A stretch of DNA of 64,000 nt from an uncultured Verrucomicrobiae bacterium. Its GTDB lineage: Bacteria > Verrucomicrobiota > Verrucomicrobiia > Chthoniobacterales > UBA10450. The translations under genes were made by a program, and so were the position numbers. The notes under the pieces were generated by a model. That model was not told the origin of the DNA. It was given only the letters and a program-made list of their open reading frames with translations, and searched no databases. The stretch is taken from the NCBI GenBank assembly GCA_963756875.1, contig CAVWPA010000003.1:896001-960000 (forward strand), written 5' to 3'. Shown here piece after piece: positions 1 through 19,712 of the stretch. Each line of letters starts with the position of its first letter. Within the stretch, counting starts at the first letter, position 1.

Positions 1-1
1 T

Positions 2-845
2 AAACAACCCATCGCCGATTTGGTTGAAGCCATGCATCGGTATGCCGTGAGCCGGGTCATCTTCGCCGCCGGTCATAGCCAGTTGAATCGTGTCGAGCAG
101 GCCATCGGTGCGTGCGAAATCGAAGGTGTGCCTGCGTGGCTGGTCGCCGATTTTATTCAAACCTCGATCGCCAAACCCGACTTTGACGCGTTTGGCGGAA
201 GGCCAATGCTCGTTTTTCGATCGACCCCGGAAGTTTCATGGGCCTTGCTGATCAAGGGAATCATCGATCGGTACTGTCGCCGCCATTGCATTAGTACTCA
301 TGGCCATTCCGATGCTTGTCGTCGCGCTCGTCATCCGGATCACATCAAAAGGGCCGGTCATTTTCCGCCAACGTCGGGCCGGGCGATTTGGGAAACCGTT
401 CGTGATGTACAAATTCCGCTCGATGACTGACGACGCCGAGATGCGACGCGCGGAGCTCGAGCCGTTTAATCAGATGAGCGGCCCCGTCTTTAAAGTGGAA
501 GCCGACCCGCGCGTCACTCCAATCGGGCGCTGGCTGCGGCGAACGAGTTTCGACGAGTTGCCGCAACTGGTAAATGTGTTGATGGGCGACATGAGTCTGG
601 TCGGTCCGCGGCCGCTGCCGCTTTATGAAGTGGAAAAATTTGAAAACACGGCGCAGCGACGCCGCCTGAGCGTCAAACCTGGATTGACCTGTCTCTGGCA
701 AATCAGCGGACGGAATCAGGTCCGCGATTTTCGTGACTGGGTTAGACTGGATCTCGATTACATCGATCGCTGGTCGCTCGCGCTCGATTTCAAGATCCTG
801 GCGCGCACCGTTCCGGCGGTGATCATGGGATTGGGCGCCAAGTAG
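2..845 (+). CDS. Polyprenyl-phosphate sugar phosphotransferase (WcaJ/CpsE-like), 5'-partial, apparent +1 frameshift near 270
   Basis: ORF 300..845 carries the sugar-transferase motifs [28 protein letters not shown] and KPGLT. Removing one base at 269-272 joins it to the upstream frame ([20 protein letters not shown]). Confidence 0.9.
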
Positions 846-962
846 CGCGGCGTCGCACGCGGCGGCTCTGCCGGCGTACTATAATATATAGAGACATAGG
901 AATATGCGTCGTTTGCGTCGCATGGAGTACCCATGCGGAGTTGCGCCTCGTTGCGCATTGAG

Positions 963-1129
963 TCGGGGAGCGCACGCGCCCTCGCGTGCTCTCCTCGGCG
1001 CCCTCGCCGAGGAGTCCACATGAAAACGCAACGCGTTACTCTCCCATAGAGAATGCCGCTTCGCGGGTTGATTTGGGATGTTCGCGGCGAGGTGCCGCAA
1101 ACTGCACGCGGGGCGCGTGCGTTTCCCGA
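963..1129. repeat. REP-like inverted pair (GGGGAGCGCACGCG family)
   Basis: 963-1013 and 1080-1129 are imperfect inverted copies, each with internal hairpins. The same family recurs at 46081-46131 and 46727-46864. Confidence 0.8.
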
Positions 1130-1161
1130 AGCTTGTCGCCGCCGAAGTGGGCGCTCAGGCT

Positions 1162-1764
1162 TTATTCCTGCGGCGCGTACCGGGCGAGCATGCGCTCGAT
1201 GTATTTGGCCAGAATATCGAACTCGATATTCACCAAATCGCCCGATTGAGCGAGGTCGATGTTGGTGTGGTGTTTGGTGTGCGGGATGATCCAGACGGCG
1301 AGGCTGTCTGTTAACACCTCCGCGATGGTAAGGCTGATGCCGTTGATCGCAATCGATCCCTTGTAAGCCGCGTAATGCGCAAACTCGCCCGGCAATTCAA
1401 CTTCCAGCCGGTAATCCGCACCGCTGCGCTCGAAGGAAACGATGCGGGCGGTGCAATCGATGTGGCCCTGCACGAAATGTCCGCCCACCCGGCCGTTCAC
1501 GGGGAGCGCGCGCTCCAGGTTCACCCGGCTTTCGCGGCGCATGCTTTTCAGATTTGTGCGATCAAGCGTTTCGTCCAGAAGATCGAAAGTAAGCTGGCCG
1601 GAGCGGCGCGCGCTCACCGTCAGGCAGCAGCCATTGACAGCGATGCTATCCCCAGTGGCAATTTCGTCCGCCAGGCGCGGTGCGGCGATTTGCAACTGCG
1701 TTCCTCGCTCCGTCGCCCGAATCCAAAGCATCGTGCCCACTTCCTCGATCAAGCCGGTAAACAT
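1162..1764 (-). CDS. ribE: Riboflavin synthase (alpha chain)
   Basis: Starts MFTGLIEE; contains GDSIAVNGCCLTV, VNLERAL, GGHFVQGHID and KGSIAINGISLT. Confidence 0.96.
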   Translation of the reverse strand: MFTGLIEEVGTMLWIRATERGTQLQIAAPRLADEIATGDSIAVNGCCLTVSARRSGQLTFDLLDETLDRTNLKSMRRESRVNLERALPVNGRVGGHFVQGHIDCTARIVSFERSGADYRLEVELPGEFAHYAAYKGSIAINGISLTIAEVLTDSLAVWIIPHTKHHTNIDLAQSGDLVNIEFDILAKYIERMLARYAPQE

Positions 1765-1827
1765 CGCGCAATTTTTTCGTAAGGTGCCGGAAGTTGGCAA
1801 CTCAAATCTCGGGTCGTGCTCCGGACC

Positions 1828-1901
1828 GGTAGTGTTGGCCAATTGTCAGTTGCATGACTTGCCCTTTAGTTTTCTCCGAACTGACAATCAGCGAATCCTC
1901 C
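1828..1901. mobile_element. MITE-like element (GGTAGTGTT...ATTGTCAGTT family)
   Basis: Internal inverted repeat ATTGTCAGTT/AACTGACAAT; CTCCGGAC repeated at 1819 and 1898; both ends match the element at 30446-30583 in the opposite orientation. Confidence 0.55.
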
Positions 1902-1924
1902 GGACATGGCCAATTTGGCGTGAA

Positions 1925-2043
1925 AACCCAAATCCCAAGCTCCAATACCCAGAGAAGCTCCAACCTCAAAGCAATGTGGGGTGTTCCCGTTTGGATTTGG
2001 TGATTGGAGTTTCCTTGGAGTTTGGGTATTGGAATTTGGGATT
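1925..2043. repeat. Long imperfect hairpin built from ~7-nt units (AAATCCC/GGGATTT type)
   Basis: AAATCCCAAGCTCCAATACCC... is complementary to ...GGGTATTGGAATTTGGGATT. Confidence 0.7.
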
Positions 2044-2076
2044 CAGGGGATTTAGAAATCGCGCTTGATCTGCGTT

Positions 2077-3368
2077 ATGCCGCTCATCTTCACCGCAGTT
2101 GCCTTCGGCCCGCGTGATCCGGCCCTTTTCGGCGTCCCGTTGGATTTTATTCTGTTCGCGCTCGTTTTGGCCGGCGTAGCGCTCTTTCACCGTCATACCC
2201 TGGGGGTCGCGCTCGTCGGCCTGGCAACGGTTTCAATCTATAAAATTGCCTTCACCCGGTTCGACACCGGCCCGGGTGTGCCAGGATTTTTGTTTCACGT
2301 CGCTCACGAGTGGGTCGTTCTCGCGAACCTGCTTTGCCTTCTGGTGGGGTTCGCGGTGTTGTCGCGCCATTTCGAAAAAAGCCACGTCCCTGTGATATTA
2401 CCTAAATACCTCCCTCACGATTGGAGAGGAGGCTTCATTTTGCTGGTGCTGGTCTGGATTCTTTCCAGCTTTCTCGACAATATCGCCGGGGCGCTGATCG
2501 GTGGCGCGATGGCGCATCAGCTCTTCCGGGCCAAGGTCCATATCGGCTTTCTTGCGGCGATCGTCGCCGCATCCAACGCGGGTGGCAGTTGGAGCGTCCT
2601 GGGCGACACCACCACAACGATGATGTGGATCGCCGGGATCGCGCCGATGAAAGTAATCGGAGCGATCATACCCGCGGCGGTCGCTTTGTTTATTTTTGGC
2701 ATTCCGGCGGCCATCCAGCAACACAGGTATTCACCAATTCTGGAGCGCACGCACGAACACACGCATGTCGATTGGGTACGTCTCGGAATCGTCGGATTGA
2801 TTCTGGTCCTCGCGCTGCTGACCAACGTGACAGTGAACATGAAGTTCGCTCAGCACGCGGAAAGCTTTCCTTTTATTGGAGTGGCCGTGTGGGTGGCGAT
2901 CCTGCTTTCGGTTGGGATGCGTCGCCCCGATTGGGAAACGCTGCCGGGAGCATTCAGGGGTTCCGTTTTTCTGCTCTCGCTTGTCCTGATCGCATCGATG
3001 ATGCCCGTAGAAAAATTGCCGCAGGCATCCTGGCAGACGGCGCTCGGTCTTGGCTTTCTCTCCGCTGTGTTCGACAACATTCCGCTGACCGCGCTGGCGA
3101 TCAAACAGGGTGGATACGACTGGGGCTTTCTGGCCTATACCGTCGGGTTTGGCGGATCGATGATCTGGTTCGGTTCGTCGTCCGGGGTGGCCATCTCGAA
3201 TATGTACCCGAAGTCAGGTCCGTCGGGCAATGGTTGCGGCACGGCTGGTACATTGTGATCGCGTACATGATCGGTTTTTTCGTCATGTTCGGTGTATGGA
3301 AATGGCACCCGGATATTCCACATAAGCGGGGCGGCGATCCCGAGCGGACCGTGCAGCTCGCGTTATAA
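2077..3368 (+). CDS. Ion-transporter superfamily permease (NhaD/CitMHS/ArsB-like), apparent 1-nt deletion near 3208
   Basis: Many TM segments with LSSFLDNI, SNAGGSWSVLGDTTTTMMW, SAVFDNIPL and GGSMIWFGSSSGVA. Adding one base gives MYPEVRSVGQWLRHGW and a final TM helix ending at TAA 3368. Confidence 0.85.
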
Positions 3369-3601
3369 TCGGCGCCCGAATTTCAAACGAGCAGTCGTCG
3401 CCATTTTCACTCCGGGCGACTTTGGCCTAACGAATCAGGAGGATTTTCCAAAGCTGGAAATGTTCCTGTTTAATTACGCGCCCGAAAGCGGGCAAAAACG
3501 GCCCCAAAAATTCTTTAATTTTTTTCTAGGCAGCCGCAGGGAAATCCGATAGAACGGCAAAAAACGGGATTGGCGGGCGACAGTTGGTCCGGCGGCCCCG
3601 T

Positions 3602-3662
3602 TCAAAAAAAGCTTAAAAAAGTGAAAAAAAACCTTGCCAGCGTGCAGATTCTTCAATAATGC
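3602..3662 (+). promoter_or_regulatory. Putative promoter with phased A-tracts upstream of the TonB-dependent receptor
   Basis: Three A6-A8 tracts about 10 bp apart, then TTGCCA and an AATAAT -10-like box (spacing imperfect). Confidence 0.35.
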
Positions 3663-3683
3663 CTAGCGCAACCTAACCAAACC

Positions 3684-6600
3684 ATGGAGAAACCAATGAC
3701 TAGAAACGTACCTAACAAACTGGGATTGCTTCGCGCCGCTTTCGTAGCCGGTGTCGGGCTGCCTCTGATCATCGCCACGAGCGTCCGCGCGCAAAACCTA
3801 GCGCCTGCGGAGCAAAATGAGCCTCGGCCGGCGGAAGCGACAGCCGAGCGCGTTATCGTGACCGGGTCCAACATTCCGACGGCGGAAGAAGTTGGTGCAA
3901 ACCCGGTTCTCACGTTGAACCACGACGTCATCAAAAAGGCGGGCGTGCGCACCACGGAAGAACTTCTGCAGCGGCAACCGGTCATCAACGCCAACCAGAT
4001 CCCGGTGCAAAATAACGGAACCAGCCAGTCCGGTCCGTCCGGCACCAGTTCGATCGCCCTTCGCGGGCTTGACGTTCAGGCCACTCTCGTTCTGGTCGAT
4101 GGCAAGCGCGTCGCGCCCTATCCGGGTGCCTCGTTCGTGGATTTAAATAATATTCCGCAGCCGTTCATCGGCAGCATCGAAATTCTGAAACAGGGCGCTT
4201 CCGCCGTGTACGGAGCCGATGCGGTAGCCGGCGTCGTGAACATTAAGTTGAATAAGGATTTTCGCGGCGTCCAGGCGACGGTCGAGTACGGCAATGTGAT
4301 GGATAAGAATGCCGCCCGCTACCTGGGCGACGTTCTCTTTGGTGTTGGCGACGACAAAACTTCGATCACCGGCGATATCTTCTACTATCACCACAATTCG
4401 ACGTTCAATGGTGACTACGGCAACTCCGCAGTCCCGCCGTTCCTGAGTTCCAACGCCAGCCCGTGGAACGTCCAGGTAACCCGTGCCGCGGTACTGTCCA
4501 ACCCTACAAATGGGTTCGGGGCACAGGATCCGTTTCCCAATATAAATCACACCGACAATCCCACGCTCTTCGACAACTTGTCGGTAGCACGGTTACCACT
4601 ATTACCTGAATGCGGCCGGTCTGACGGCGATCGGCAACACGGATAACAGCTCAACCGGAAGAGACAACGCCACCAACATGGCCATGATCGATAGCATTCA
4701 TAAGCTGAATGTCGTGAGTTCGGGCGGCGTCTTCCTGGGGCTCACGCCGAACAACACGTTCTTTACGTCCAACCCGAGGAATTATCAGGATGCCCCCGGC
4801 AGCGCTTCAAATTGGCACTATGGCCAGGGACGTCTGCACGCTTTTAACTTCAACAAGTTCTCCAGTTCGTTCCCCGAGCAGGAGCGCTGGGGCGGTTACG
4901 CATCATTCATCCATAAGGTTTGCGACGATCAGGTGCAGGTCTATGGCGACTTCATGTATGACGACTCAAAGACGCATGATGAGTTGGCGCCAATTGCCAC
5001 CGGCTCGTTCCAAACAACCGGCAACCCGGTGATCGCCGTCCCGCCTCACATGGACTTGAACGGCATGGTTGGCGGCCCCGGAATGGAGTATGCCGGCACG
5101 CCGACCTACGCCGCGACCGGCGTGGACAACCATGCCTATAACCCGTTCAATCCGTTTAACCAGATTCTGTCCGGCGGCACCCGGGCCCGTATCTTCGACT
5201 TCGGCAACCGACTCATCGATAACGAAGCGTATGCCTGGCTGACCACTCTGGGTGTTAAAGGCGACAAGCTGTTTGATGGAAACTGGGGTTACGACTCCTT
5301 CTTCCGTTACAGCCAGACCGACTTGGTTTCCCGGATCGTGACGGCCGCGGGCACCCGGTTCGCCGAGATCATGAATGCGAACAGTCCGATCTTCGACCCG
5401 GCTTCGAGCCAGTATATCGGGACGACTGTTCCGTACGATCCGTTCTACCACTACCTCGGCCAGGAGCCGCCAACCAACCGTTACTCCGTCAATTACGCCC
5501 GAGCGAATGTTCGCGACCTGTCGAAATCCTCGGTTGCGCAGGCCGGTGTGAATATCTATACGGTAGACCTGTTTGATCTGCCGGCAGGCGGGGTCGGCTT
5601 TGCCGTCGGCGGTGACTGGCGCCGGGAGGAATACAAGTTCAACCCCGACGATCAAGACAGACTTGGGAACCAGCTTGGTGTCGGCATAGCTCCGTATGCC
5701 GCGGGCGGTCGCAAGACTTATGCGTTCTATGCGGAAACGACGATCCCAATCTTCAGCCCGACGATGGGCGTTTGGGGATTGCACTCTCTGGAGTTCGATG
5801 CCGCTGGCCGGTTTGAGGACTTCAGGAATAACAGCACCAACGTGTTGGTTCCGAGAGTGTCCTTGCGCTGGCAGCCGTTTGACGAGGAACTGACCCTCCG
5901 CGCCTCGTGGGGTGAAGGCTTCCTCGAGCCGTCGCTCAGCGAGCTCTATAATCCGCCGTTTTTCACTCTGGCGCCGACCGTCTATCACGGCCACGCGGAG
6001 CCGGAAACAACGTACGAAGTCACTACGAACAAAAACCTGAAACCGGGAGATTCCCGCGACTTCACTGCCGGGTTTGTCTACACCCCGAAGTGGATGCCAC
6101 AAGGGCAAACGTTGACCGTCGGAGCAGATTTCTGGGACATTGAGCGCAGCGGTGTTGTTACCCAACCCAGCGCTGCGGAAGTGGTGCAGCGTTTTATACA
6201 TAATAACCTGCTTCCCGGCGAAGTCGTCCAGATCGACCCGGTTAGTGATAGCGTGAACTTTGTGAAATCCGGTTTCCTCAACGCGGGGAAACAGAAGGCG
6301 CGTGGCGTCGATCTCACGCTGCTTTACCAATACCAGACACCCAACTGGGGAACCTTCACCTGGACGTCCCAGGCGACCTACCTTGACTCGTTCATCTTCC
6401 AGTTGGATACGACAACGAGGCCACACGAAGTCAGCGGGCGTGCCAACAACGATCCGTTTGAGGGCGCGTTCTTCGGCGCGGCGACCGCCGGCGACGGCTG
6501 GTTGAAGTGGAAAGGCGCATCGACGCTCGACTGGTCGTGGCACAACTTCGACTTCGCCTTTACCGAGCACTATTGGGACGGGTTTAAGGAGGAGTGGTAC

Positions 6601-6990
6601 CCCGCGGCGTTGCGTGGAAAGTTTTTCTTCAACCCGGCTTACCCGGAGCGTGACCATTACGTGAGCCAGCGTTGGTTCTCCGATATCGACACTTCTTACA
6701 CTCTACTCTTCACGCCTCCTGTGGAGTCGCAGCCGGTGGCCGGCTACTCGAAGGGCGGCAAGGAAATGATGACGGGCAAGGACAAGCAGGTCGAAACGGC
6801 CGCTTATGAAATGCCATGCTGGAAAACCATCCTGAACAACACGACGCTGACGTTCGGTGTGACCAACCTGTTTGGCCAAGACCCGCCGCAGATGTACGGG
6901 ACCTTGTATTCCAACTCCGACAACTATCCGGGCTCCCTGTACGACAACCTGGGACGCTTCTACTACATCCGGTTAACAAAGAAGTTCTAG
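3684..6990 (+). CDS. TonB-dependent receptor, apparent +1 frameshift shortly after 4585
   Basis: Signal peptide, VIVTGSNIP TonB-box region, plug motifs (LRGL, TLVLVDGKR, IEILKQGASAVYGADAVAGVVNI) in 3684..4646. Barrel strands and the C-terminal Phe (IRLTKKF) are in 4678..6990, a frame that is open back to 4588. Confidence 0.93.
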
Positions 6991-7016
6991 GCGTCGCAAA
7001 CGTTAGGTAATAATTC

Positions 7017-7055
7017 AAGAGGCAGCCTCGCTTTCGGGGCTGCCTCTTTGCTTTT
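7017..7055 (+). terminator. Rho-independent terminator
   Basis: AAGAGGCAGCCTCG-CTTT-CGGGGCTGCCTCTT followed by TGCTTTT, just after the receptor stop codon. Confidence 0.85.
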
Positions 7056-7065
7056 GTGATCTCTG

Positions 7066-7281
7066 CTGGTGGGGCGAGACTCTGTCGAGCCGACGAATAA
7101 ACTCAGGTCTGAATTTTCCTGGCCAGCGACGCTGTTCGGAATGACCGGGGTTTTCAACGAGGCTGCTTGGAATTTGAAGCTCTGTTTTTCGTTTTTCAGA
7201 CCCAGGGTAGGATTTTGTCGGCTCGACAGAGTTTACCCGCCGCAGGCGGCGCCAAAGGCGACCAGGGTCTCGTCCCACCAG
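7066..7281. repeat. REP-like inverted repeats (GTGGGGCGAGACTCTGTCGAGCC family)
   Basis: CTCTGTCGAGCCGAC is inverted at 7217-7231, and CTGGTGGGGCGAGAC is inverted at 7267-7281. Confidence 0.7.
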
Positions 7282-7366
7282 CGTGAGTTCGAAATCTTCT
7301 CCGAAACTCCGGGCGATCGTCATGGTTGAATCTTTGACGGTCAAAAACTGAGAGGTAACTTTTAAT

Positions 7367-7669
7367 ATGAAAACATCAAAGGCGGTAAAGATTGTGTCCT
7401 TGCTGTTAAGTGGAGCGTTCTTGGCGACCCCAATGTTTGGCGGGCAACCCAAGGACAAATCGTCCAAGAACAAAGACAAGGACCAGTATGAATATGTCTT
7501 TGTCACTGGATCGAGCATCCCTCGGAAGGTGAAGATTAAGTCTGTCGGGAACGCGATTTCGAACCTGCGCGTCTACAACCGAAAAGAGATCGATCAAACC
7601 GGCCGAGCGACAACGGCAGGCGTTCTGGCCCAGGACCCGTCCGTTACGGTGAGGGGCCCCAAGGGCTAA
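7367..7669 (+). CDS. Small secreted protein resembling an isolated TonB box plus the start of a plug domain
   Basis: GAGGT RBS, signal peptide, Lys-rich linker, then VFVTGSSIP...VYNRKEIDQTGRATTAGVLAQDPSV, which aligns with the N-terminus of the upstream receptor. Confidence 0.8.
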   Translation: MKTSKAVKIVSLLLSGAFLATPMFGGQPKDKSSKNKDKDQYEYVFVTGSSIPRKVKIKSVGNAISNLRVYNRKEIDQTGRATTAGVLAQDPSVTVRGPKG

Positions 7670-7684
7670 GTTTAGAAGAGAGTG

Positions 7685-7808
7685 AGCACTGTTGAAAAGC
7701 TTAGCCGGAGCGGGATTCCTGTGGTGGCAGCCGTGCCGGCTGCGTTACGTTTTGCAGGCGACACGCCTGCCTCTACAGAGTTACGATAAGAGGCTTTTCA
7801 ACAGTGCT
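7685..7808. mobile_element. 124-bp MITE with 16-bp TIRs and a 9-bp target-site duplication
   Basis: Perfect TIR AGCACTGTTGAAAAGC (7685-7700 / 7793-7808); flanking direct repeat AAGAGAGTG (7676-7684 / 7809-7817); contains a REP pair at 7720-7777. Confidence 0.88.
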
Positions 7809-8461
7809 AAGAGAGTGCAAGCATGCTCTGGCATGCGCGGAGCACAGCTTGAGCTGCCGGCCTGCAAGCGCCTATAGCGGACGCTGGCTGGGAGTCTGGA
7901 AGACCCAAAATACCGGGATTTGCCGTAAACGCAGTTTGGCTGTGGGAAGCGGCACCCGAGGGGATGTCCAAGGTCTCAGGGATAACGTCCGGATCGCGGC
8001 CTGAAGGATCAGTTTTACGCCGATGCACGTGGGCCGGCAGGATTGACAAAATCCTGGCCCAGATTGTATTCAGCTTCCGGGCGCGATTGATGGCCCTGAT
8101 GACGCTTTGGGCTCGATGGGCTCGACGAAAGGGTCGCCCCCTCCTGGGGCCGAGCGCGGCGGGCTTTGCACCGCCATAGAGGGAGCCTAAAGCGGGGGTT
8201 GTAGGGCATGTCGGGCGACATGGGATGCCTCGGGCAATCAAAGTCCACAGGTTGCATTCACTCTAGGAAGTCGGCATTTACAGCACGCCAGATCTGCTCC
8301 ATGCCGGGCTGATCTAATCACCGAGGGAAGAGGCTTAGAACCCTGGGCGCATCCTTCCTTGGCACCTTCTCTTGCCGAGGCGCTGGAAACCCGTCCGGCT
8401 GGGGAGTTTGTGCGCGATATAAGGGCTGGCACAGGCTGTGCTTATAATCATCATAACCACC

Positions 8462-9100
8462 ATGATTATTATAAGCCTTCTTCCCTTTACCGCGCGCAAA
8501 GCTTTCTGCCTGGCCGGCGCTATCCTGGTCCTTTGCTCGGTCTCTTCCTTCGCCAGACCGGTGTTCGTCAATGTCGATAAGACTCCTTATGACCGGCAAA
8601 TGACCCGAATCCGCCCTGTCCTGCTTTCCCGCCACACCGGCGGACACGAAGGCGTCTCGCTGGCCATCGTGAATAACTGGATTTGGAATCTGCGCGCGAT
8701 CCCATACGGGTTTTGCCCACAATGGAAGACCCCGGCCGAAGTGGAATCCGGAAGCATGGCCGATTGCAAAGGCAAAGCGGTCGCCCTTTATGACATCATG
8801 CGCTCGCACGGCGCGCAAAACGTCCGGCTGGTTATCGGGAAGCGCTCCTGGATGAGCCGAAAAACGCACGCCTGGTTGGAATGGACGACCCCTAATGGTA
8901 CATATGTGCTCGATCCGACGATCAACTGGACCGCAGCGCGCGTCTCCCGGTTCGGCAGCAGCTTTTACATTCCGTTCTACGCGTACGCTGGGAACCACAA
9001 ATACCGCGCTGCCAGTTCGACCATGTTCGCCAAGGCCGAGACAACGACAAGGCGCCATCACAATCTCTGGGCGGTCAACTCCGCTCCTGCTGCTCATTAA
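8462..9100 (+). CDS. Secreted transglutaminase-like cysteine protease (BTLCP/LapG-like)
   Basis: Signal peptide; WKTP, ADCKGKA (Cys), THAWL (His) and YVLDPT (Asp) form the triad pattern. Confidence 0.8.
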   Translation: MIIISLLPFTARKAFCLAGAILVLCSVSSFARPVFVNVDKTPYDRQMTRIRPVLLSRHTGGHEGVSLAIVNNWIWNLRAIPYGFCPQWKTPAEVESGSMADCKGKAVALYDIMRSHGAQNVRLVIGKRSWMSRKTHAWLEWTTPNGTYVLDPTINWTAARVSRFGSSFYIPFYAYAGNHKYRAASSTMFAKAETTTRRHHNLWAVNSAPAAH

Positions 9101-9230
9101 GATCGGTGGTTGTAGACGTTTCGCTTTGCGAAACGCGGCGCTGAAATGGTTAAGCGGCCAGGCGCCGCGCCGCCCCGGGAGGCCGGCATCCGGTCCCGGA
9201 AAAAAGTTCGGGTTGCATAAAAAATTTGTA

Positions 9231-9259
9231 TTGCAAAGAGCGAGGCAGGGCGCTATCAT
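9231..9259 (+). promoter_or_regulatory. Sigma70-type promoter
   Basis: TTGCAA-17 bp-TATCAT with an A-rich upstream segment, 13 nt before ATG 9273. Confidence 0.6.
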
Positions 9260-9272
9260 CGTTTTTGTATCT

Positions 9273-10595
9273 ATGGAAATTATGAGCGCACATCCTTCTC
9301 GTTTTGCCCGTGTCACAGGCCTCGTTTCTTGCATCGTTCTCGCCCATGTTTCAGGAGCGATTGCCGCGGAACTGGTTTTGCAAAAAGTCCCGCCGCTCAC
9401 GGTCGAGCAGGTGCCGGGTTATCCGCAAAATCTCGCGCGTTATCATTTCGGCGCGCAAGTAGAAGCGTTGCCGGAAAGTAATCCGATCGCCAGCTTGCAG
9501 CTGAGCTCGAATTCGGAAGACCATAACGTTGCCGAGGCGGCATTGCTGTGCGACGACCCTACGACCGGGTATGCCCTGTCCAATGGCAAGACCACTTTGC
9601 TTATCTCGCTTTCCAAGATCGAAAACATCGACAGCGTCTCGTTCCTGAACAACGGAGCGAAAGGTCAAGTGACCATTGCGGTTTCCAGCGCAAATTTGCC
9701 TGCCAGCAGCGCGCAGTGGCGGAAGGTCGCAAAGCAAGAGCTCAGCGGTGATGTCGTGAAAGCAGAGATCGGCCCGACCGACGCAAAATACGTCAAACTC
9801 ACTTTTAATGTGAGCGCGTCTGGTCGCATTGCCAGCCTGGGCGTCTATTCGCCGCCGGCTGTTTCGGATTTCACGGCGCCACGTACACGCGAACCGATTT
9901 CAGATCAGCCGGGAAATGTTCAGCTGGTGAGTTACAACCTGACGGACGTCCATGCGAAGGCGCGAGCGCTTTACGTCAGCTCGGGTAGCGATCTGGCAAA
10001 GGCAAACAGCATGATTGATGAGCAACCGGCCACCGCTTACAGCTTTGCCGCGAGCGACGCAGCCCCAACCGCTGTAATCGATCTCGGGAAGGAAATGTCA
10101 GTGCGCCGTATTTCCGCAATTTACTCGCCGCGACAAGGCATGATGGATTTCTATGTGCTTCAAAATCTGCCGGCCGCGCAACCGGACCGGGCATCGCCAA
10201 AGTCTCTGCGCTTGAGCGCGAGCACGCTGGCCGATATGAGACCGGTCGGTTCGGTCGCAGACAACGGGACCGGCCGCGCCGCGATCGATTTCCCATCTGT
10301 TACCGGCCGTTACATTCTGGTGAAATGGACTCCAGCGACGGCGCGAGACGCTTCTTTCGCCATCGCCGAGATCGCTGCCTTTAGCGGCAGCGCCAGGCAA
10401 GGCAGCCTGACGATGGCAGCCAATTCCGTCAGCAACGCCGGTGTCGAGTCGGACGGAAAAGATGTGAAAGATTTCGGTTCAGGCAAAGACGCGAAAGAAA
10501 TGCCTGAAGAAGGCCCGGCCGAAGGTCCTCCTCCAACATTGCCCGATCCGCCTCCATTCGTGTTCGTGCCGGAGATCGTTCCGACCAGTCCCTAA
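9273..10595 (+). CDS. Secreted protein with two discoidin (F5/8C, CBM32-like) domains and a GKxxK/Pro-rich tail
   Basis: Signal peptide; two repeats of NL..., D-x-x-T-x-Y, I(S/D)L, (K/R)Y(V/I) and IAxL/IAEI; tail DGKDVKDFGSGKDAKE-PPP. Confidence 0.7.
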   Translation: MEIMSAHPSRFARVTGLVSCIVLAHVSGAIAAELVLQKVPPLTVEQVPGYPQNLARYHFGAQVEALPESNPIASLQLSSNSEDHNVAEAALLCDDPTTGYALSNGKTTLLISLSKIENIDSVSFLNNGAKGQVTIAVSSANLPASSAQWRKVAKQELSGDVVKAEIGPTDAKYVKLTFNVSASGRIASLGVYSPPAVSDFTAPRTREPISDQPGNVQLVSYNLTDVHAKARALYVSSGSDLAKANSMIDEQPATAYSFAASDAAPTAVIDLGKEMSVRRISAIYSPRQGMMDFYVLQNLPAAQPDRASPKSLRLSASTLADMRPVGSVADNGTGRAAIDFPSVTGRYILVKWTPATARDASFAIAEIAAFSGSARQGSLTMAANSVSNAGVESDGKDVKDFGSGKDAKEMPEEGPAEGPPPTLPDPPPFVFVPEIVPTSP

Positions 10596-10609
10596 CGAAT
10601 TACCCGTAG

Positions 10610-10655
10610 AAAAGAGCCCGTCCTTCGGAAAGACCGTTGGACGGGCTTTTGCTTT
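10610..10655. terminator. Probable bidirectional terminator
   Basis: AAAAGAGCCCGTCC...GGACGGGCTTTT between convergent genes. Confidence 0.7.
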
Positions 10656-10662
10656 CCAATGG

Positions 10663-11931
10663 CTAGAGTTCGTCGCGAATGATTTCAAAAATCTGCGTGT
10701 TGTCGATGCTTCCGTGTAGCATTTCCGTTCCGGGACCGTCGCCGAGCGCAACCACATCCTCCACGGTCTCCAGCGCCGATTTCGTGTAGAACGCCGCCGG
10801 TTCCAAATTTCCGGCTGCGGTATTTTCCGGGACTCCATTCTCACTGGGAGTTTTGGCCATGCCGTAAGAGCGCGTTCCCTTCGGCCCATTCGCCCAGGTA
10901 ATCCACGGTTGTCCGGCAGAGTTCAATCCAAGCAAAGCGAGGCCGCTATCTTTGCGAAATGGAAATCCATTGAGACTAAGGCCACCGATGGCAACGTCGC
11001 CGCAAACAATGATCGTCGATCCCGCGCCGGCGTAACTTCGCGCTACCGAGACGGCGCGGTCGAGCTCAGCCGTCTGGCTAAAAACCGTTTCCGCGTCGTT
11101 TTGCTCGGCCGCTTTTCGCATCAGACCGGCATCGACCACGAGGAGATATCCTCCAGGGTTGTATTGTAGCAGTTCGATCGCTCGCCGCACCATGTCCGAC
11201 AAACTCGGTTGATCGTTTCCCTGTTTGATTTGATTTGCAAATGCCAGGTTGCTCTGGCTGAAAACGCCGAAAAGTTTTGGACGGCGCCAGGCGGGAATCG
11301 CATCGAGTTCTGCGCGCGTCCGAACGATATCGAAACCGTTTCCGCGCAATTCCAGCAGAAGATCGCGGGCATCCTGCCTTTGCCCGTTTTTCGTTTCCGG
11401 AAGAAACTGGGCGCCGCCGCCGCCCAGCGCGATATCGATCTTTCCGCTCCCTGCCAGTTGCGCGGCGAGATTATCCTCATCGGCCGGGTCGGTGCTGTGA
11501 GCGTAAAAAGCCGCGCAGGTTGCATTGGTTAATTTCGCATTCGTTACCAGGCCGAGCGCGCGGCCATGGTCCCGCGCGAGATCCATGATGCTGGGAAGCG
11601 CCTTTTCATCGGTATCCATCGCGATCGAGCGGTTGTTCACTTTCTTGCCGGTCGCGATGGCACTGGCAGCGGCAGCTTGATCGCTCACTGCAAAATCCTT
11701 CGAATAATTGGTGATTAAGGCGACGTGGCTCATGGAGTCCAGAGCAAGACGCGCATCGGCGCCGCCTGTATAAACTCGAGTGGCCGCGAGACGTTCCGGG
11801 GCAAGCCCCTCCCCGATGAACAGAATGATCCCAAACGGCTTTTGTATGACCCAATGCTTGAAATAAAGAACGCCGAGACCGACGAACACAAAAAGACAAA
11901 AAAGTGCCAGGAGCTGGTTCCGCCACTTCAT
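10663..11931 (-). CDS. Membrane-anchored alkaline phosphatase homologue with a degenerate active site
   Basis: PhoA scaffold motifs are in order (IILFIGEG, SDQAAAASAIATGKK, GLVTN, LGGG, PSLSDM, GYLLVVD, EDV, IDNTQIF), with an N-terminal TM helix. Confidence 0.85.
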   Translation of the reverse strand: MKWRNQLLALFCLFVFVGLGVLYFKHWVIQKPFGIILFIGEGLAPERLAATRVYTGGADARLALDSMSHVALITNYSKDFAVSDQAAAASAIATGKKVNNRSIAMDTDEKALPSIMDLARDHGRALGLVTNAKLTNATCAAFYAHSTDPADEDNLAAQLAGSGKIDIALGGGGAQFLPETKNGQRQDARDLLLELRGNGFDIVRTRAELDAIPAWRRPKLFGVFSQSNLAFANQIKQGNDQPSLSDMVRRAIELLQYNPGGYLLVVDAGLMRKAAEQNDAETVFSQTAELDRAVSVARSYAGAGSTIIVCGDVAIGGLSLNGFPFRKDSGLALLGLNSAGQPWITWANGPKGTRSYGMAKTPSENGVPENTAAGNLEPAAFYTKSALETVEDVVALGDGPGTEMLHGSIDNTQIFEIIRDEL

Positions 11932-12025
11932 CTCGGCGAGTAGAAGCCGCGCGTGACTGTTGTCAATCCCGCAACCACGGGAAAGCGCTTGTCGATTCTG
12001 ATAACTGCCGCCAGAGTGCCCACGT

Positions 12026-13585
12026 ATGGCGGGACCGGTCATGCTGATCATTCGCGACGGTTGGGGGATTAATCCCGGCGGAAAAGCAAAGCGAGACGAA
12101 AACGGAGATGCTACTCTTCTCGCGCGAACGCCGTTTCACGACCGGCTCTATCGAGATTATCCGGGCAGTAATCTCAGCGCCAGTGGGCCCGACGTCGGTT
12201 TGCCCGAAGGACAAATGGGCAATTCCGAGGTGGGCCACCTTAATTTGGGCGCGGGCAGAATCGTTTACCAGGACCTGACTCGAATTAACAAGGCGATCGT
12301 CGACGGCGAGCTGGCTCACAATCGCGTTGCACAGGAAGCATTCGCGGCGGCCCGCGGTCATCGACTCCATCTGCTCGGACTTGTTTCGGACGGCGGCGTG
12401 CACAGCCACTACTTGCACATGATCGCTCTGGCCAATGCCGCCAGTGCGGCAGGCGTTGGGCAGATTTTTGTCCACGCCTTCACTGACGGGCGCGATTCGT
12501 CCCCGACGGGTGGATCGGATTTCCTGAAAATTTGCGAAAAGCAACTTCGCGCGAGCGGTGCGAAAATCGTCACGGTCGTAGGGCGCTATTTTGCAATGGA
12601 CCGCGATCGGCGCTGGGACCGAACCAAAAAAGCCTGGGATGCCATCGTTTTTGGTCGCGGCGAGATTTGCAAATCGTCGCCGGCCGAAGCGCTGGAGCGG
12701 CAATATAAGGCCGGCAAAACCGATGAATTCATGCCTCCGCTCATTTTTGCCCATGCGAACGAGCAGCGCATCCGCGACGGTGACACTGTTCTGTTTTTTA
12801 ATTTTCGCGCTGATCGTGCCCGGCAATTGTCGCAGGCTTTTCTGCTAAAAGATTTCGACGGTTTTGATCGTGGAGCGTGGCCACGAGTTCACTTTGTCTC
12901 GCTCACGCAATACGATGTGCGCTATGCCGCGCCGTTTGTTTTTGCGCCACAGGAACTGGCAAACATTCTCGGCGAAGTGGTGAGCGGGGCCGGCAAAACA
13001 CAGTTGCGTATCGCCGAGACGGAAAAATATGCGCACGTGACCTACTTTTTTAATGGCGGAGTTGAACGCCCGTTTCCCGGCGAAGACCGCAAACTGATCC
13101 CTTCGCCAAAGGTGGCCACCTACGACTTAAAACCGGAGATGAGCGCGTTTGAGGTGACCGACGAGCTGCTGGCTAACATGGCAAATTACGACTTGATCAT
13201 CCTGAATTTTGCCAACCCGGACATGGTGGGGCACACCGGAATTGTCGAAGCGGGGATCAAAGCGGTTGAAACAGTGGACGAATGTTGTTCGCGGATCATT
13301 CCCAGACTTCTCGATCTGGGCGGCAAATGCATCGTTACGGCCGATCACGGTAACTGCGAGCAAATGCGCAATCCGGACGGTTCACCTAACACAGCGCACA
13401 CGACAAACCTGGTGCATTTCGTGTATGTCGCCCAGGGCGCGGGAGAATTTCGCTGCGAGGATGGAATTCTTGCCGATGTTGCGCCAACACTTCTGTTTCT
13501 GCTTGGAATGGAGAAACCCGGCGAAATGACCGGCCGAAATTTGCTGGTACCGGTCAATCAGACGACTTCGGCCGCGGGCACCTGA
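12026..13585 (+). CDS. gpmI: 2,3-bisphosphoglycerate-independent phosphoglycerate mutase
   Basis: DGWG, GQMGNSEVGH, SDGGVHSH, GRYFAMDRD, AETEKYAHVTYFFNGG, NPDMVGHTG and ADHGN. Confidence 0.98.
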   Translation: MAGPVMLIIRDGWGINPGGKAKRDENGDATLLARTPFHDRLYRDYPGSNLSASGPDVGLPEGQMGNSEVGHLNLGAGRIVYQDLTRINKAIVDGELAHNRVAQEAFAAARGHRLHLLGLVSDGGVHSHYLHMIALANAASAAGVGQIFVHAFTDGRDSSPTGGSDFLKICEKQLRASGAKIVTVVGRYFAMDRDRRWDRTKKAWDAIVFGRGEICKSSPAEALERQYKAGKTDEFMPPLIFAHANEQRIRDGDTVLFFNFRADRARQLSQAFLLKDFDGFDRGAWPRVHFVSLTQYDVRYAAPFVFAPQELANILGEVVSGAGKTQLRIAETEKYAHVTYFFNGGVERPFPGEDRKLIPSPKVATYDLKPEMSAFEVTDELLANMANYDLIILNFANPDMVGHTGIVEAGIKAVETVDECCSRIIPRLLDLGGKCIVTADHGNCEQMRNPDGSPNTAHTTNLVHFVYVAQGAGEFRCEDGILADVAPTLLFLLGMEKPGEMTGRNLLVPVNQTTSAAGT

Positions 13586-13626
13586 TCGTCCTGTTAAAGA
13601 GCAGTCGCTTCTTTTCCCAGTCCAGA

Positions 13627-14355
13627 TTATCCAGCTTTAGCCCGGGTGGCCAGGATATCCTCAAACGTAATTTTTAACTCTTGATTTAAGAGACGCATGC
13701 CGGCAGCGGCGATTCGCTGCAAGAGGCGAAGCTGATTTTCCGGCGTTGTTTCCTGCCAGGTTGGCTTGCGCACCATGCTCAGGGCGCCGCCAGACTCGAT
13801 GAGCGCGCCCCAGCCAGCTGGAATTTCGGACTCGCGATACAACTTCCTGGGCAGGACAAGAAAGAATAAATTCGCGCATCGGTAGCGAAATAATTTCTCA
13901 AACTTCGTGCAGTCGAACAGCCGATTTTGCAATGCGGTCAGCTCGCGCGAAACGCGTGTGTAAGCGCTGTGTCTGATTGCCGCAAAGTCGTGCGAATCGA
14001 ATTCGGAAAACAAGGAATCGGGGATTCGAAGCTGCGGATAATGGATGCGCAGATTCTTTTCGAGGACCTGCCGTCTTTGGTAAACCTTTTCGAGCCGCTG
14101 GCGTGTCGCCGCGGTCGAGCCGTTGTCCCGCCGCAGGTCGACAAGGGCTTGTTTGCACTCGAAGACAGCTGTCGATCCCGTTTCGTTAGGCTTGGCCCGA
14201 TACGCGGCCAGATCGGCGCGGTACCGGCATCGGGGCAGGCTGACTTCAAGCGCGCAAGCGGAGTACCCATGCGCCTGGGCCCAGAGAAGCGCGCACCGCT
14301 TTAAATGCGCGTGGGCGGCGGTTTCCCCGCGGGGGCGAGTCAGGTCCGTGTCCAT
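13627..14355 (-). CDS. PD-(D/E)xK-fold protein (MmcB-like putative nuclease)
   Basis: H..LK, EV, RADL and FECKQ...DL.RD pattern plus P.GWG; overlaps the hemB stop. Confidence 0.6.
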   Translation of the reverse strand: MDTDLTRPRGETAAHAHLKRCALLWAQAHGYSACALEVSLPRCRYRADLAAYRAKPNETGSTAVFECKQALVDLRRDNGSTAATRQRLEKVYQRRQVLEKNLRIHYPQLRIPDSLFSEFDSHDFAAIRHSAYTRVSRELTALQNRLFDCTKFEKLFRYRCANLFFLVLPRKLYRESEIPAGWGALIESGGALSMVRKPTWQETTPENQLRLLQRIAAAGMRLLNQELKITFEDILATRAKAG

Positions 14356-15353
14356 TCCGCCAGCTCGCGGGCCCAATAGGTGACAATGATATCGGCGCCG
14401 GCGCGCTTGAGTGAAGTCATGATTTCAAGAACGACCGCCCGTTCGTCGACGAGTCCTTTTTCGGCAGCGACTTTGACCATCGCGTATTCACCGCTCACGT
14501 GATAAACGGCGGTGGGTTTGCCGAAACGCTCGCGAACTCGCCATAAGATGTCCATGTACGGCAACGCCGGTTTCACCATCACGATGTCGGCCCCTTCCTC
14601 GATATCCAACGCAACTTCGCGCAAGGCTTCCTCCGCATTGGCGAAATCCATTTGATACGAACGGCGATCACCGAATTGCGGCGGGCTCTCCGCCGCCTCG
14701 CGAAACGGGCCGTAAAAAGCCGACGCGAACTTGGCCGCGTAGCTCATGATTGCGGTCTGATCGAAACCGTTCGCATCGAGCTCATCGCGAATTGCTCCAA
14801 TGCGGCCATCCATCATGTCGCTTGGCGCGACGATGTCGGCGCCTGCTTTTGCGTGGGAGAGCGCGGTTTTGGCCAATAGCTCCACCGTCTCATCGTTCAA
14901 GACATGGAAATGATCGCCGTCGACGCGGGTTACGCCGCAATGACCGTGACTCATGTACTCACACAGACAAACATCGGTGATCGTGACCAGGTCGGGACAT
15001 TTCCCCTTGATCGCCCGGAGCGCCTGTTGCACGACTCCGTTCTCGGCATAGGCGCCGGTTGCCTGCTCGTCTTTCTTTTCGGGAATTCCGAAAAGCAGGA
15101 CGGCCTGGAGTCCCAAATCGCGAGCCCGCTTCGCCTCGTCGGCAATTTCGGTGAGCGAGAATTGAGAAACGCCCGCCATGCTTGTGACCGGCCGGGATTT
15201 TTTGATGGTTTCGCTGACAAACAGCGGCAGAACAAAATCGTGCGGATCCAGGCTTGTCTCGCGAACGAGATTGCGAAGAGCGGACGAGCGCCGCAACCGG
15301 CGTGGGCGATGGACCAGCTTCCTCACGGTGGCGAGGGTACCCGTTTGGCGCAT
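14340..15353 (-). CDS. hemB: Porphobilinogen synthase
   Basis: RPRRLR, DVCLCEYMSHGHCG, APSDMMDG, FYGPFREA, MVKPA and VSGEY. Confidence 0.98.
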   Translation of the reverse strand: MRQTGTLATVRKLVHRPRRLRRSSALRNLVRETSLDPHDFVLPLFVSETIKKSRPVTSMAGVSQFSLTEIADEAKRARDLGLQAVLLFGIPEKKDEQATGAYAENGVVQQALRAIKGKCPDLVTITDVCLCEYMSHGHCGVTRVDGDHFHVLNDETVELLAKTALSHAKAGADIVAPSDMMDGRIGAIRDELDANGFDQTAIMSYAAKFASAFYGPFREAAESPPQFGDRRSYQMDFANAEEALREVALDIEEGADIVMVKPALPYMDILWRVRERFGKPTAVYHVSGEYAMVKVAAEKGLVDERAVVLEIMTSLKRAGADIIVTYWARELAEWTRT

Positions 15354-15447
15354 GCGTCGCAAGTACGGTTGGCGGGCGCCGGCCGTGCTTGACGGCGCGC
15401 CGCGTTCACGCTAGCGCCGTGCTTGGCAATGGCTCTCTTCTTCTATT

Positions 15448-16194
15448 ATGAATCGAGCAACTGATTACCTGTTGGTGGATATCAGCAATTCATTCACCAA
15501 ACTGGCCTTTTCCTCGAAGACAAAAATTGATGGCTCCCGACGGGTGGCGACCGCGCGGTTCGACTCGAAGTTTTGTCGCGCGTTCATCGGTCGACGAGCG
15601 ATTGCCGGGGTGATGGCGTGCTCGGTCGTACCAAAAAAGAATCGCGAGCTGGAAAAGGCGGTTGGAAGAACAGAAGTAATGTGGCTTAAGCCGGGATTGA
15701 AACTCGGAGTTGGGATCGATTATCCGCGACCTGCGTCAATCGGGCCGGATCGGCTGGCCAACGCAGCCGCTGTTGCGGCGCTTTACGGTTGCCCCGCCAT
15801 TGTTGTCGATTTCGGAACGGCGGTGACGTTCGATATCGTTTCCGCGCAGAGAAATTACATCGGCGGAGTCATTGCGCCCGGGCTCGAGGCGATGACCACC
15901 TTTCTTTATCAGCGCACCGCCTTGTTGCCGAAGCTTTCCCTGAAAGAGCCGCGTCGAGCAATCGGGAGATCGACCGTCGAAGCGATGAGGGCCGGGGCGA
16001 TTTTTGGTTATCGCGGGCTGGTGCGCGAAATCATCGCCCAGATCAAGGCTGAACGATTCCCGCGTAAGAAAGTTCATGTGGTTGCGACCGGTGGATACGC
16101 GGGTTTGATCGCTGCCCGGCTGCGCGGCGTCGATGCGGTGCATCCAAATTTGACCTTGGAAGGTCTCCGGATTGTGGCGAATCTCAATTCCTGA
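15448..16194 (+). CDS. coaX: Type III pantothenate kinase
   Basis: VDISNS, GPDR, VVDFGTAVTFD, GGVIAPG, VATGG and LTLEGL. Confidence 0.93.
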   Translation: MNRATDYLLVDISNSFTKLAFSSKTKIDGSRRVATARFDSKFCRAFIGRRAIAGVMACSVVPKKNRELEKAVGRTEVMWLKPGLKLGVGIDYPRPASIGPDRLANAAAVAALYGCPAIVVDFGTAVTFDIVSAQRNYIGGVIAPGLEAMTTFLYQRTALLPKLSLKEPRRAIGRSTVEAMRAGAIFGYRGLVREIIAQIKAERFPRKKVHVVATGGYAGLIAARLRGVDAVHPNLTLEGLRIVANLNS

Positions 16195-16335
16195 TGTTGG
16201 TGGTTCGCTTGGTGATTACGCCTGCGAAGAATGGGGCCTGTCCGTACGGCGTGATTCTTGCTCCAAGCCACAAAAAATAATCTCAAAAATTTAGGCTTGT
16301 CATCAGGCGGCGGCGACGGTTTTATGGTGATTCGC

Positions 16336-19300: not shown

Positions 19301-19620
19301 TCACAGTCGCGGGATTGCAGCTTGTTTCAGATTTTGCGGCCGCTCCGCTTCAATTGACTCCGTCGCAACAGACCCATACCTCGGTTCTTGTCTCAGCGCC
19401 GTTCCAAATTGCCACGGTGGATTTTTCGCCTTCGTTCGAAATCGCTTCCATCGTTCTCAACTCGAATTCGAAACAGGTCTCCGTCCAGTTGCCCGGCGCC
19501 GCAGCAGGGGTGATCGAAGGAGCTCCGATCTTCGAGATTGCCAATCTGCAGCTGACCGGAACCGGCGATATTGGAATGATGCAATTGCATCTCGTCGGCC
19601 ACGGGCCCAAGCGCGGATAA
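16336..19620 (+). CDS. Large membrane protein: duplicated TPR module, Ala/Pro linker, TM helix, acidic region, C-terminal repeat domain
   Basis: Signal peptide; two similar TPR blocks ending LYEVGWL and FYDLGWV; TM GLAWLIGGLVLAGIALLAWVFV; about five FEIA-like repeats. Confidence 0.85.
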   Translation: MKTRKLAVIAILVLGSFAADNVAPSKAELEAMYDKAFRAFDASNFSEALKDLDAIDARQPDLAESQNLRGVILMREGIYDKAEAALREALRIDPKFWNARFNLAEIPFLEKNWPEARSRFQDLLSSNASELQGEATQLIQYKILLTYLLEGKENMVDAILAKFELSPDTPAVHYANAAIALQRKDNKEAKSWMEAAEKNFSPQLNKLFAESLYEVGWLEKQAGQGRAALEISSPAERAAKMKAFAQSRFEQAQQALEHHDLVAAAKFIDDANTAAPNEARILNLRGEILMEQKEFDKAEAEFKQALKVNPKYREAQYNLAQVPFKQKEYTKARERFEALFTKTPGGEKNQAADLIKFKIYMTLLLEGKESRAQRMMEQFQFTGDTPALYYAQAAWEFKHNNPTKANDWIASAKKIYSPALNSIFGDAFYDLGWVQGPALAQMSPAPATEAAVAMESAPTESSPAIEPSPIPGASLAKKASSKESVAAVSPVASPVVAGGETSTSTAVASEAMAAGTPVKPEEIPTAPVPNLSPVVETPVAAEASPASSAVPTKPAIAVESNPASSPAEAVAMASASPAAATVAAIASATPATALAPQRIGELGHSAPHSGFGLAWLIGGLVLAGIALLAWVFVPEIRRRGLHFPAFRRAAPATGPGIGEVSIPAAAPVQKQMKVNTRLPGGPRQVSLRLKASEPSLRRAVIPSAKPSRGFAPPDEPAVERNGKPETEVEVKAFTPPPSERVFESVGPVIEQDAMAFMPEAVSEPEAFPVVEEPHTAPIAEEAPSLDVAEPVFAHAASIAEPEVESEAEPIGQGQPIPQLTPVIGSEPYTPEIVTEPEPQPAAFGEFGSIIEPPPFEQSAVFTEPFISQPITPATMPEPTQTPTAPVVRTSAPGGAPQSGSMQTAVQLTFAFEIASMQLTPTFKMGAVQLRPSSKIVSMRLAPSQHPQPAMNLQVNFEISKIQPSGGALGSIRLTPSQQQRPAAAGSPSFTVAGLQLVSDFAAAPLQLTPSQQTHTSVLVSAPFQIATVDFSPSFEIASIVLNSNSKQVSVQLPGAAAGVIEGAPIFEIANLQLTGTGDIGMMQLHLVGHGPKRG

Positions 19621-19712
19621 GTCGATCTGGGTCGATTATAAGATTCTAAGATTCCGCGCGCCCAGCCTGGGCTTTCTGTACGCTCGCTCCGCGAAGCGCT
19701 CGAGCGCCCGCG

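Follow-up and report, generated by a model that had tools for sequence, protein, structure and literature searches.

The open reading frame at 7367..7669 (+) of the window, the 64,000-nt stretch of DNA from an uncultured Verrucomicrobiae bacterium analysed here, is a real, conserved gene under purifying selection and not a decayed fragment. It encodes a mini-protein that corresponds to the N-terminal end of a TonB-dependent receptor, with a signal-peptide-like start, a Ton box and the beginning of the plug, and it lies downstream of a receptor gene of the same Ton box type. What is new is the stand-alone, conserved architecture of a known module. Judging from its sequence and surroundings, the mini-protein is a putative periplasmic TonB-binding modulator of its partner receptor, a tentative assignment whose chance of being right we place somewhat below one half. 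A full-text literature search found no natural free-standing Ton-box/plug-start protein in the article text it covered, and the statement of the sequence-only reading that no system of this kind had been characterised held for that literature as well as for Pfam and NCBIfam.

The ORF was present as the sequence-only reading had described it, running from ATG to TAA and coding for 100 aa plus the stop, and the window's genome holds a single strong copy of it (G000:C3:903367-903654). From the N- to the C-terminus, the mini-protein is composed of a signal-peptide-like start, a short K/D-rich spacer, the Ton box region YEYVFVTGSSIP, a basic linker (RKVKIKSVG), the plug-start segment NLRVYNRKEIDQTGRATTAGVLAQDPSVTVR and four further residues before the TAA, ending 9 residues past the DPS motif. 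The signal-peptide-like N-terminus (residues 1 to ~26; 7367..7444, +) was recognised by eye from the sequence and from the consensus of alignment A1 (...ATGAFA/SP). It opens with MKTSK, continues with a hydrophobic stretch and closes with FGG/QPKD, resembling a Sec signal in which, also by eye, the lipobox cysteine is absent; since the signal region contains no cysteine, cleavage would probably be carried out by signal peptidase I. Only ~15 residues separate the signal peptide from the Ton box, no Pfam match to an STN-fold domain was obtained before the Ton box, and sigma/anti-sigma genes were absent from the locus maps. The Ton box region (residues 41-52; 7487..7522, +) contains the receptor-type sequence VFVTGSSIP and aligns with ERVIVTGSNIP of the 13 neighbouring receptors. 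It is followed by the basic linker RKVKIKSVGNAIS (residues 53-65; 7523..7561, +), which exceeds the receptors' acidic TAEEVG linker by 6 residues; the corresponding segment reads IPQKVKVKxIGT in the mini-proteins, whereas IPTAEEVG is near-invariant in the 13 receptors. The plug-start segment (residues 66-96; 7562..7654, +) is homologous to the first strand and helices of the plug of TonB-dependent transporters (TBDTs).

Across the 93 diverse members of alignment A2, the Ton box block, with T47, G48, S49, I51 and P52 near-invariant, is the best-conserved part of the protein. In alignment A1, the plug-start segment is conserved at least as well as the Ton box, with R72, I75, D76, G79, R80, T82, V86, L87, A88, D90 and P91 invariant. 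The window's protein, which is row 1 of both alignments, has every invariant residue. The complete globular plug (about 110-150 residues) is absent from the mini-protein, only the first ~40 plug positions being aligned, and Pfam Plug gave no match to it at E<=1. No 22-strand beta-barrel is encoded in the ORF, and remnants of a plug or barrel were not detected in any frame of window positions 7300-9500, either by tblastn with three intact receptors (best E 0.64) or with a receptor HMM, which bears out the earlier observation that the protein stops cleanly.

The sequence-only reading had allowed that homologues might exist only as the N-termini of full-length receptors. When the search was restricted by length, 42 proteins of 96-104 aa were obtained, with 45-100% identity and including the window's own, and their alignment (A1) contains 17 invariant columns. 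An HMM built from this alignment and compared, at any length, with 1.84 billion representatives matched 167 clusters at E<=1e-3 and 69 at <=1e-10. Among the 150 listed matches, 143 were proteins of 33-182 aa, in which the match mostly reached the C-terminus. Five of the seven longer matches were inspected (P0137 and P0160 left out); three were repeat proteins and apparently spurious, and two were N-terminal receptor fragments (E 2-5e-4), the sole genuine receptor N-termini among the matches listed. Because full-length receptors score far below the short proteins with this HMM, the mini-proteins form a separate family, which we define by a length of 85-117 aa, a signal peptide, a Ton box of the form V-x-V/L-T-G-S-x-I-P, a plug-start signature (...R-x-E-I-D-x-T/S-G...L-x-x-D-P-S) and an end ~50 residues past the Ton box. 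Members of the family extend for a median of 53.5 residues from TGS to their C-terminus (range 47-79), and lipobox-like signals occur in ~16 of 93 distant members. Neither Pfam nor NCBIfam has a model for the family, weak matches to receptor models being the only ones obtained; these weak matches account for the 'cobalamin receptor' labels given by one source, and in the ESM Atlas the family appears as unnamed Verrucomicrobiota clusters.

Length and end point are kept over the 129 distinct mini-protein genes recovered from the loci. The dN/dS analysis that had been proposed with the sequence-only reading was carried out on this gene set by the Nei-Gojobori method and gave a median of 0.27 for the core (IQR 0.19-0.35; 1020 non-independent pairs with dS of 0.1-0.8), as expected under purifying selection. 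An earlier pass, in which most of the 325 pairs were saturated, had given 0.10-0.19 for the closest pairs. Numerous homologues of the same length, purifying selection and receptor synteny together exclude a decayed fragment. That the gene is a relic without function, left by a partial duplication or by the decay of a receptor gene, is accordingly scarcely credible. Its homology to the receptor 5' end, the frameshift in the window's neighbouring receptor and the dispersed repeats that flank the gene would all suit such a remnant, but they stand against a constant length and a low dN/dS over 129 genes, 167 representative clusters, a match in 80 of the 147 genomes of the family and the absence of barrel remnants downstream. 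The loci surveyed also speak against the homologues being miscalled parts of longer genes.

The alignment of the mature part with the N-terminus of the neighbouring receptor, on which the sequence-only reading rested, was recovered by BLASTP as a weak match to the receptor ORF 3684..4646 (27% identity over 66 aa, E 0.001, in one comparison). At the profile level, hhalign of the 93-member A2 against the N-termini of 13 neighbouring receptors gave a probability of 98.4% and an E value of 9.3e-15 over 92 columns, with the aligned span extending from the signal peptide through the DPS motif. The A2 HMM also matches the receptors' own N-termini in related loci (E 1e-5 to 1e-12), weak Pfam Plug matches occur in 17 of 93 family members, and a weak alignment (E about 0.03) was obtained between the family profile and the initial ~40 residues of the plug in the solved transporters 5fok, 6i96 and 3efm. 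On the basis of this profile-level homology, the mini-protein gene is best explained as having arisen when a receptor gene was duplicated at its 5' end. Mini-proteins share an identity of 0.296 with the N-terminus of their own receptor (n=38) and of 0.293 with those of other receptors (n=1406); the duplication is old, a mini-protein being no closer to its own receptor than to others. No co-variation was seen in cognate mini-protein and receptor pairs. The receptor lineage is further marked by a near-invariant ERVIVTGSNIPTAEEVGPNPV.

The partner TonB-dependent receptor gene occupies 3684..6990 (+) and is read here as two ORFs, 3684..4646, which matches Pfam Plug (PF07715, E 2.3e-18), and 4678..6990, which matches TonB_dep_Rec_b-barrel (PF00593, E 6.3e-22). 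Comparison by tblastn with intact orthologues, which mapped the two parts to different frames, and a direct reading of the three frames placed the frame change between 4499 and 4693, near 4590-4600. The receptor orthologues are single ORFs of 1048-1085 aa and are intact in L003, L033 and L034. The frame change in the window is either a true pseudogene mutation or an assembly indel, and the adjoining mini-protein gene is intact. The gene order that characterises the family, and that the window shows, is that of a receptor of ~1000-1150 aa with a VTGSNIPTAEEVG N-terminus, followed on the same strand by a terminator and then by the mini-protein gene.

When the window was pooled with loci from genomes and metagenomes, 63 distinct mini-protein genes had at least 3.5 kb of upstream sequence. 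A ~1050-aa receptor was located upstream on the same strand in 48 of these 63 loci, ending within 700 bp of the mini-protein gene in 31 and at 700-3500 bp in 17, in the latter often with one gene between, which encoded either an MFS/spermine-synthase fusion or a conserved 160-aa secreted ORF. In the remaining 15/63 loci, no receptor was present within 3.5 kb upstream. Together with the homologues of the same length, this synteny bears out the earlier description of a stand-alone mini-protein next to a receptor. The two genes are separated by a median of 203 nt (range 119-882), and the gap is never a tight operon junction.

The narrow profile A1 matched 21 of 301 genomes sampled from the order, all of them in the window's own family (20/39, plus the window's genome), and none of 261 genomes from 15 other families of the order. 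Within the window's family, a mini-protein match was obtained in 80 of 147 genomes and 18 of 26 genera, and the receptor subfamily (E<=1e-100) was found in 79/147. Both were present in 64 of the 147 genomes, the mini-protein only in 16, the receptor only in 15 and neither in 52, counts in which related genomes are not independent. The tallies include G173, G378 and G384, which are flagged as unpublished and on which nothing rests. Where the mini-protein match was strong, the receptor was present in 54/58 genomes, and the 16 genomes with a mini-protein only belong mostly to divergent subgroups. The titles of the locus records correspond to Chthoniobacterales, Spartobacteria, Verrucomicrobiota and Candidatus Udaeobacter, with two short contigs from otherwise-labelled bins. 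A distant, lipoprotein-type relative (L214, 4821-5210), 60% identical to P0147, was found in a deltaproteobacterial MAG, flanked by a hybrid histidine kinase gene on one side and a BcrAD/DUF2229 gene on the other, and away from any receptor.

The window's genome (2.69 Mb, 87.6% complete) has two Plug-bearing genes and seven TonB_C matches. Its canonical TonB is encoded on G000:C3 in an ExbB-ExbD-TonB-ExbD cluster. Both Plug matches span the full plug, and no N-terminally truncated receptor is present. The other receptor of this genome has a VVVSATR Ton box, whereas that of the mini-protein, VTGSxIP, is of the neighbouring receptor's type. Chthoniobacterales are common soil bacteria with small genomes; given this and the presence of only two receptors in this genome, the receptor and mini-protein pair is likely to be important for nutrient uptake. 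As a separate observation, TonB-like proteins outnumber receptors in this genome.

The sequences around the mini-protein gene suggest that it is expressed apart from the receptor. Directly after the receptor stop codon, an intrinsic-terminator-like hairpin of 14 pairs (9 G-C) with a loop of 4 is followed by TGCTTTTGTG (7017..7048, +), which confirms the position of the gene after a receptor terminator that had been noted previously. A hairpin with a T-run was present in the receptor-mini gap of 32 of 38 distinct pairs from other loci, compared with a mean of 1.1 in shuffled sequences. A promoter-like motif lies at 7334..7361 (+), composed of TTGACG (7334-7339), a 16-nt spacer and TAACTT (7356-7361), and ends 5 nt upstream of the ATG of the mini-protein gene. 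The sequence-only reading had assigned a ribosome-binding site and a signal peptide to the ORF. The signal-like N-terminus stood by eye, and the purine-rich GAGAGG was present at 7350-7355, 11 nt upstream of the ATG, within the spacer of the promoter-like motif. The arrangement TTGNNN-N16-18-TANNNT ending 5-7 nt before the start was found in 28 of 79 distinct upstream regions (shuffled mean 0.72), and genome-wide it precedes only 53 ORFs of >=80 aa. The mini-protein gene would thus be a separate transcription unit, and, because the promoter-like motif abuts the start codon, its mRNA is possibly leaderless or nearly so. Rfam gave no match at E<=0.1 in window positions 1-20000, so no known riboswitch or leader precedes either the receptor or the mini-protein gene. 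Among sequencing runs, two soil DNA runs from one study had a small word share (0.07 and 0.05), and none of the runs found was of RNA.

The AF2 monomer model of the mini-protein was of moderate confidence (pLDDT 70.9) and contained only a hairpin, in which the Ton-box strand (40-44) pairs with the linker (53-57), and two short helices. With this model, Foldseek returned nothing from pdb at E<=0.001, and a wide fold comparison (VIA) over 48,161 chains gave no Z>=2. The absence of fold matches fits an extended, non-globular peptide and is uninformative on function. The net charge of the mini-protein core has a median of +4. The protein is expected to be mostly disordered and basic and to fold on a partner.

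We infer that the mini-protein is exported through Sec and its signal cleaved, which would leave a basic polypeptide of ~70-75 residues in the periplasm. The mature protein would display a receptor-type Ton box (V-x-V-T-G-S-x-I-P), the basic linker and the first plug strand and helices. Its Ton box would bind TonB's C-terminal domain, as receptor Ton boxes do, and the mini-protein may in this way compete against energisation of its partner receptor or govern when this takes place, which would make it a regulator, or clutch, of TonB use. Several observations point towards such a modulator: the Ton box is the best-conserved part and of the partner receptor's type, the gene is linked to a single receptor subfamily and co-occurs with it, its expression signal is separate, as suits a regulator, and free Ton-box peptides are in use as TonB inhibitors. 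The inhibition by a Ton box pentapeptide reportedly goes back to an original report from 1992. When added externally, this pentapeptide inhibits TonB functions in E. coli, as mentioned in a figure legend of PMC5413942, and a free Ton box can therefore compete in principle. The mini-protein resembles these synthetic pentapeptides in offering a Ton box without a barrel that can compete for TonB; unlike these laboratory reagents, it is natural, conserved and genome-encoded and has an additional conserved plug-start. Since the plug-start is conserved beyond the need of a pure Ton-box decoy, it probably contacts something besides TonB. FecR was considered as a precedent for a free periplasmic Ton-box protein and rejected, the Ton box discussed in the excerpted text of PMC12036975 being that of FecA.

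A modulator of the partner receptor sits less easily with other findings. The mini-protein occurs without the receptor in 16/147 genomes, and 15/63 loci have no receptor within 3.5 kb; one paralogue (L006) is beside a Tol-like and not a Ton cluster; there is no pair-specific identity (0.296 vs 0.293); and the receptor of the window is frameshifted with the mini-protein intact.

The N-terminus of a TBDT is the closest known system, being homologous and having its elements in the same order, from signal peptide through Ton box and linker to the initial strand and helices of the plug. In BtuB and FhuA, force spectroscopy has delimited a plug subdomain of low mechanical strength that immediately follows the Ton box, comprising residues 23-73 (50 residues) and 20-83 (63 residues), respectively, and TonB unfolds this subdomain, thereby opening the channel, according to the text excerpted from Hickman et al. 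2017 (PMC5413942). The ~50 residues of the mini-protein past the Ton box are close to the extent of the force-labile subdomain reported there. In contrast to the TBDT N-terminus, the mini-protein is a separate gene product without the strong half of the plug and the 22-strand barrel, with a basic linker 6 residues longer and with its own promoter-like motif past a terminator.

It is unlikely, in our estimation, that the mini-protein is instead a trans-acting receptor subunit, whose plug-start would dock on the surface of the partner receptor or inside it, perhaps where the labile subdomain has been pulled out or at the acidic N-terminal linker, and would gate it, reseal it or add a second Ton box in trans. 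The plug-start residues that are invariant in A1 (R72 to P91, listed above), the tight linkage to and co-occurrence with one receptor subfamily, the opposite charge of the linkers (IPQKVKVK in the mini-protein and IPTAEEVG in the receptor) and the coverage of the force-labile subdomain would all be accommodated by docking. Braun and co-workers are said to have reported in 2003 that separately exported FhuA cork and barrel reassemble in vivo, so that a plug piece given in trans through the periplasm can reportedly enter a barrel. That split was engineered and used the whole cork, whereas the receptor of the mini-protein already possesses a whole plug and the free piece amounts to just the first third of one. 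Partner receptors have retained both Ton box and Plug in full, and both Plug matches of the window's genome, the only two, are full, with no receptor wanting an N-terminal piece; a plug supplied in trans is weakened as an explanation because partner plugs are complete and no truncated receptor exists in this genome. The lack of similarity specific to the cognate receptor, the occurrence of some mini-proteins without a receptor and the isolated FepA plug, which reportedly behaves as unfolded in the text excerpted from PMC11658791, also speak against it. Docking in trans is nevertheless kept alive by a plug-start that is too conserved for a pure decoy.

The number of TonB_C matches in the window's genome (7, against only 2 receptors) would also fit a Ton-box-like strand that binds one of several TonB_C-fold proteins or a TolA-like protein and serves envelope maintenance and not transport. 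The L006 paralogue is located ~150 bp 3' of a Tol/Exb-type cluster whose orthologue is followed by a TolB-like gene, and ~16/93 distant members are lipobox-like, including a deltaproteobacterial one away from any receptor, but the receptor, and not Tol or Ton clusters, is the dominant context, the Ton box fits the receptor's type, and L006 is a single locus in a genome that also has a receptor-side copy (L047). Taken together, these points make a TonB_C or TolA partner quite unlikely. Still less probable, to the point of being very unlikely, is a peptide that leaves the cell, whether to use its Ton box for uptake by, or block of, receptors of the producer or its neighbours in the manner of a bacteriocin or signal, or as cargo exported through the receptor. 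The imported bacteriocins colicins B and M and pyocin S2 have N-terminal Ton boxes on disordered segments (PMC11658791, in the text excerpted), and one TonB-dependent transporter is needed for the secretion of a protein (PMC6434023, likewise in excerpt). Like these bacteriocins, the mini-protein is no outer-membrane barrel and bears its Ton box on a flexible segment. Bacteriocins, however, are external, large proteins with receptor-binding and killing domains, whereas the mini-protein has 100 aa, is self-made and carries a Sec signal and no other domain. Its export signal is of the Sec type only, no cytotoxic or receptor-binding domain is present in its 100 aa (Pfam and NCBIfam blank), and no conserved immunity-like or secretion genes are nearby, the neighbours being the receptor, a TPR membrane protein, an alkaline phosphatase and others.

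Extending the reading of the mini-protein as a TonB-binding modulator, it is possible, if doubtful, that the mini-proteins constitute a class of Ton-system component not described before. As soluble mimics, lipid-anchored in some lineages, of the 'pulled-out' state of the transporter, they would be engaged by TonB in the periplasm and act in trans on a dedicated receptor as a clutch or a removable second gate. If true, no earlier natural regulator of the coupling between TonB and receptor would be known that is made from the handle of the receptor itself. In outer-membrane transport, the sharing of TonB between receptors and the starting and stopping of the pull are open questions, and a natural, conserved and separately expressed protein consisting only of a Ton box and a force-labile subdomain, if so confirmed, would be a ready-made probe of the TonB pulling step. 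Its existence would also suggest post-translational control of transporter energisation by a dedicated factor in some bacteria. The case further illustrates that short ORFs labelled 'hypothetical', or mislabelled 'cobalamin receptor', need not be debris and can be working derivatives of large genes.

Regarding the L006 locus (5068-8303), it carries a second mini-protein paralogue after genes for TolQ/ExbB, TolR/ExbD and a TonB_2-domain protein and a 149-aa Pro/Thr-rich secreted ORF, the paralogue lying ~150 bp downstream of the TolQ/ExbB, TolR/ExbD and TonB_2-domain cluster; a second copy in the same genome is beside a receptor (L047). The use of L006 to tie the mini-protein to TonB was considered and rejected. 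The cluster is probably Tol-Pal, because the orthologous cluster in the window's genome precedes a TolB-like gene.

Other features of the loci vary. The ~160-aa secreted ORF between receptor and mini-protein gene (L050, 8443-8931, -; L173-L180, about 4140-4830, +) has no Pfam match and accompanies a divergent mini-protein subgroup, with 62-67% identity among 7 loci; the receptor, this ORF and the mini-protein may form a three-gene cassette. Two mini-proteins occur in L182, L196-L199 and L205, either flanking the receptor or in tandem after it, the second being much more divergent (E about 1e-7 with the family HMM). Downstream, window positions 8438-13585 are syntenic with L003, L004 and L033-L038 and contain genes for a 220-aa secreted ORF (no Pfam match), an F5/8-type-C protein and an alkaline phosphatase as well as gpmI. 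A gene encoding a 643-aa TPR membrane protein is situated directly 3' of the mini-protein gene in many relatives and is absent from the window.

Repeats are present on both sides of the mini-protein gene. Within the receptor-mini gap, a ~35-nt sequence at 7063-7101 has inverted partners at 7214-7245 and 7263-7282, giving nested long inverted repeats, and at least 9 other copies of it exist in the genome; the gap in the window has probably been invaded by repeats. Beyond the gene, a palindromic element of 125 nt (window 7685-7808) with perfect 16-nt arms (7685-7700 and 7793-7808) looks like a REP- or MITE-like dispersed repeat. Two further copies of it in the genome are nearly identical (99% and 97%), and its ~60-nt core (about 7719-7778) recurs at more than 60 places in the genome, including tandem runs at G000:C3:11640-12651.
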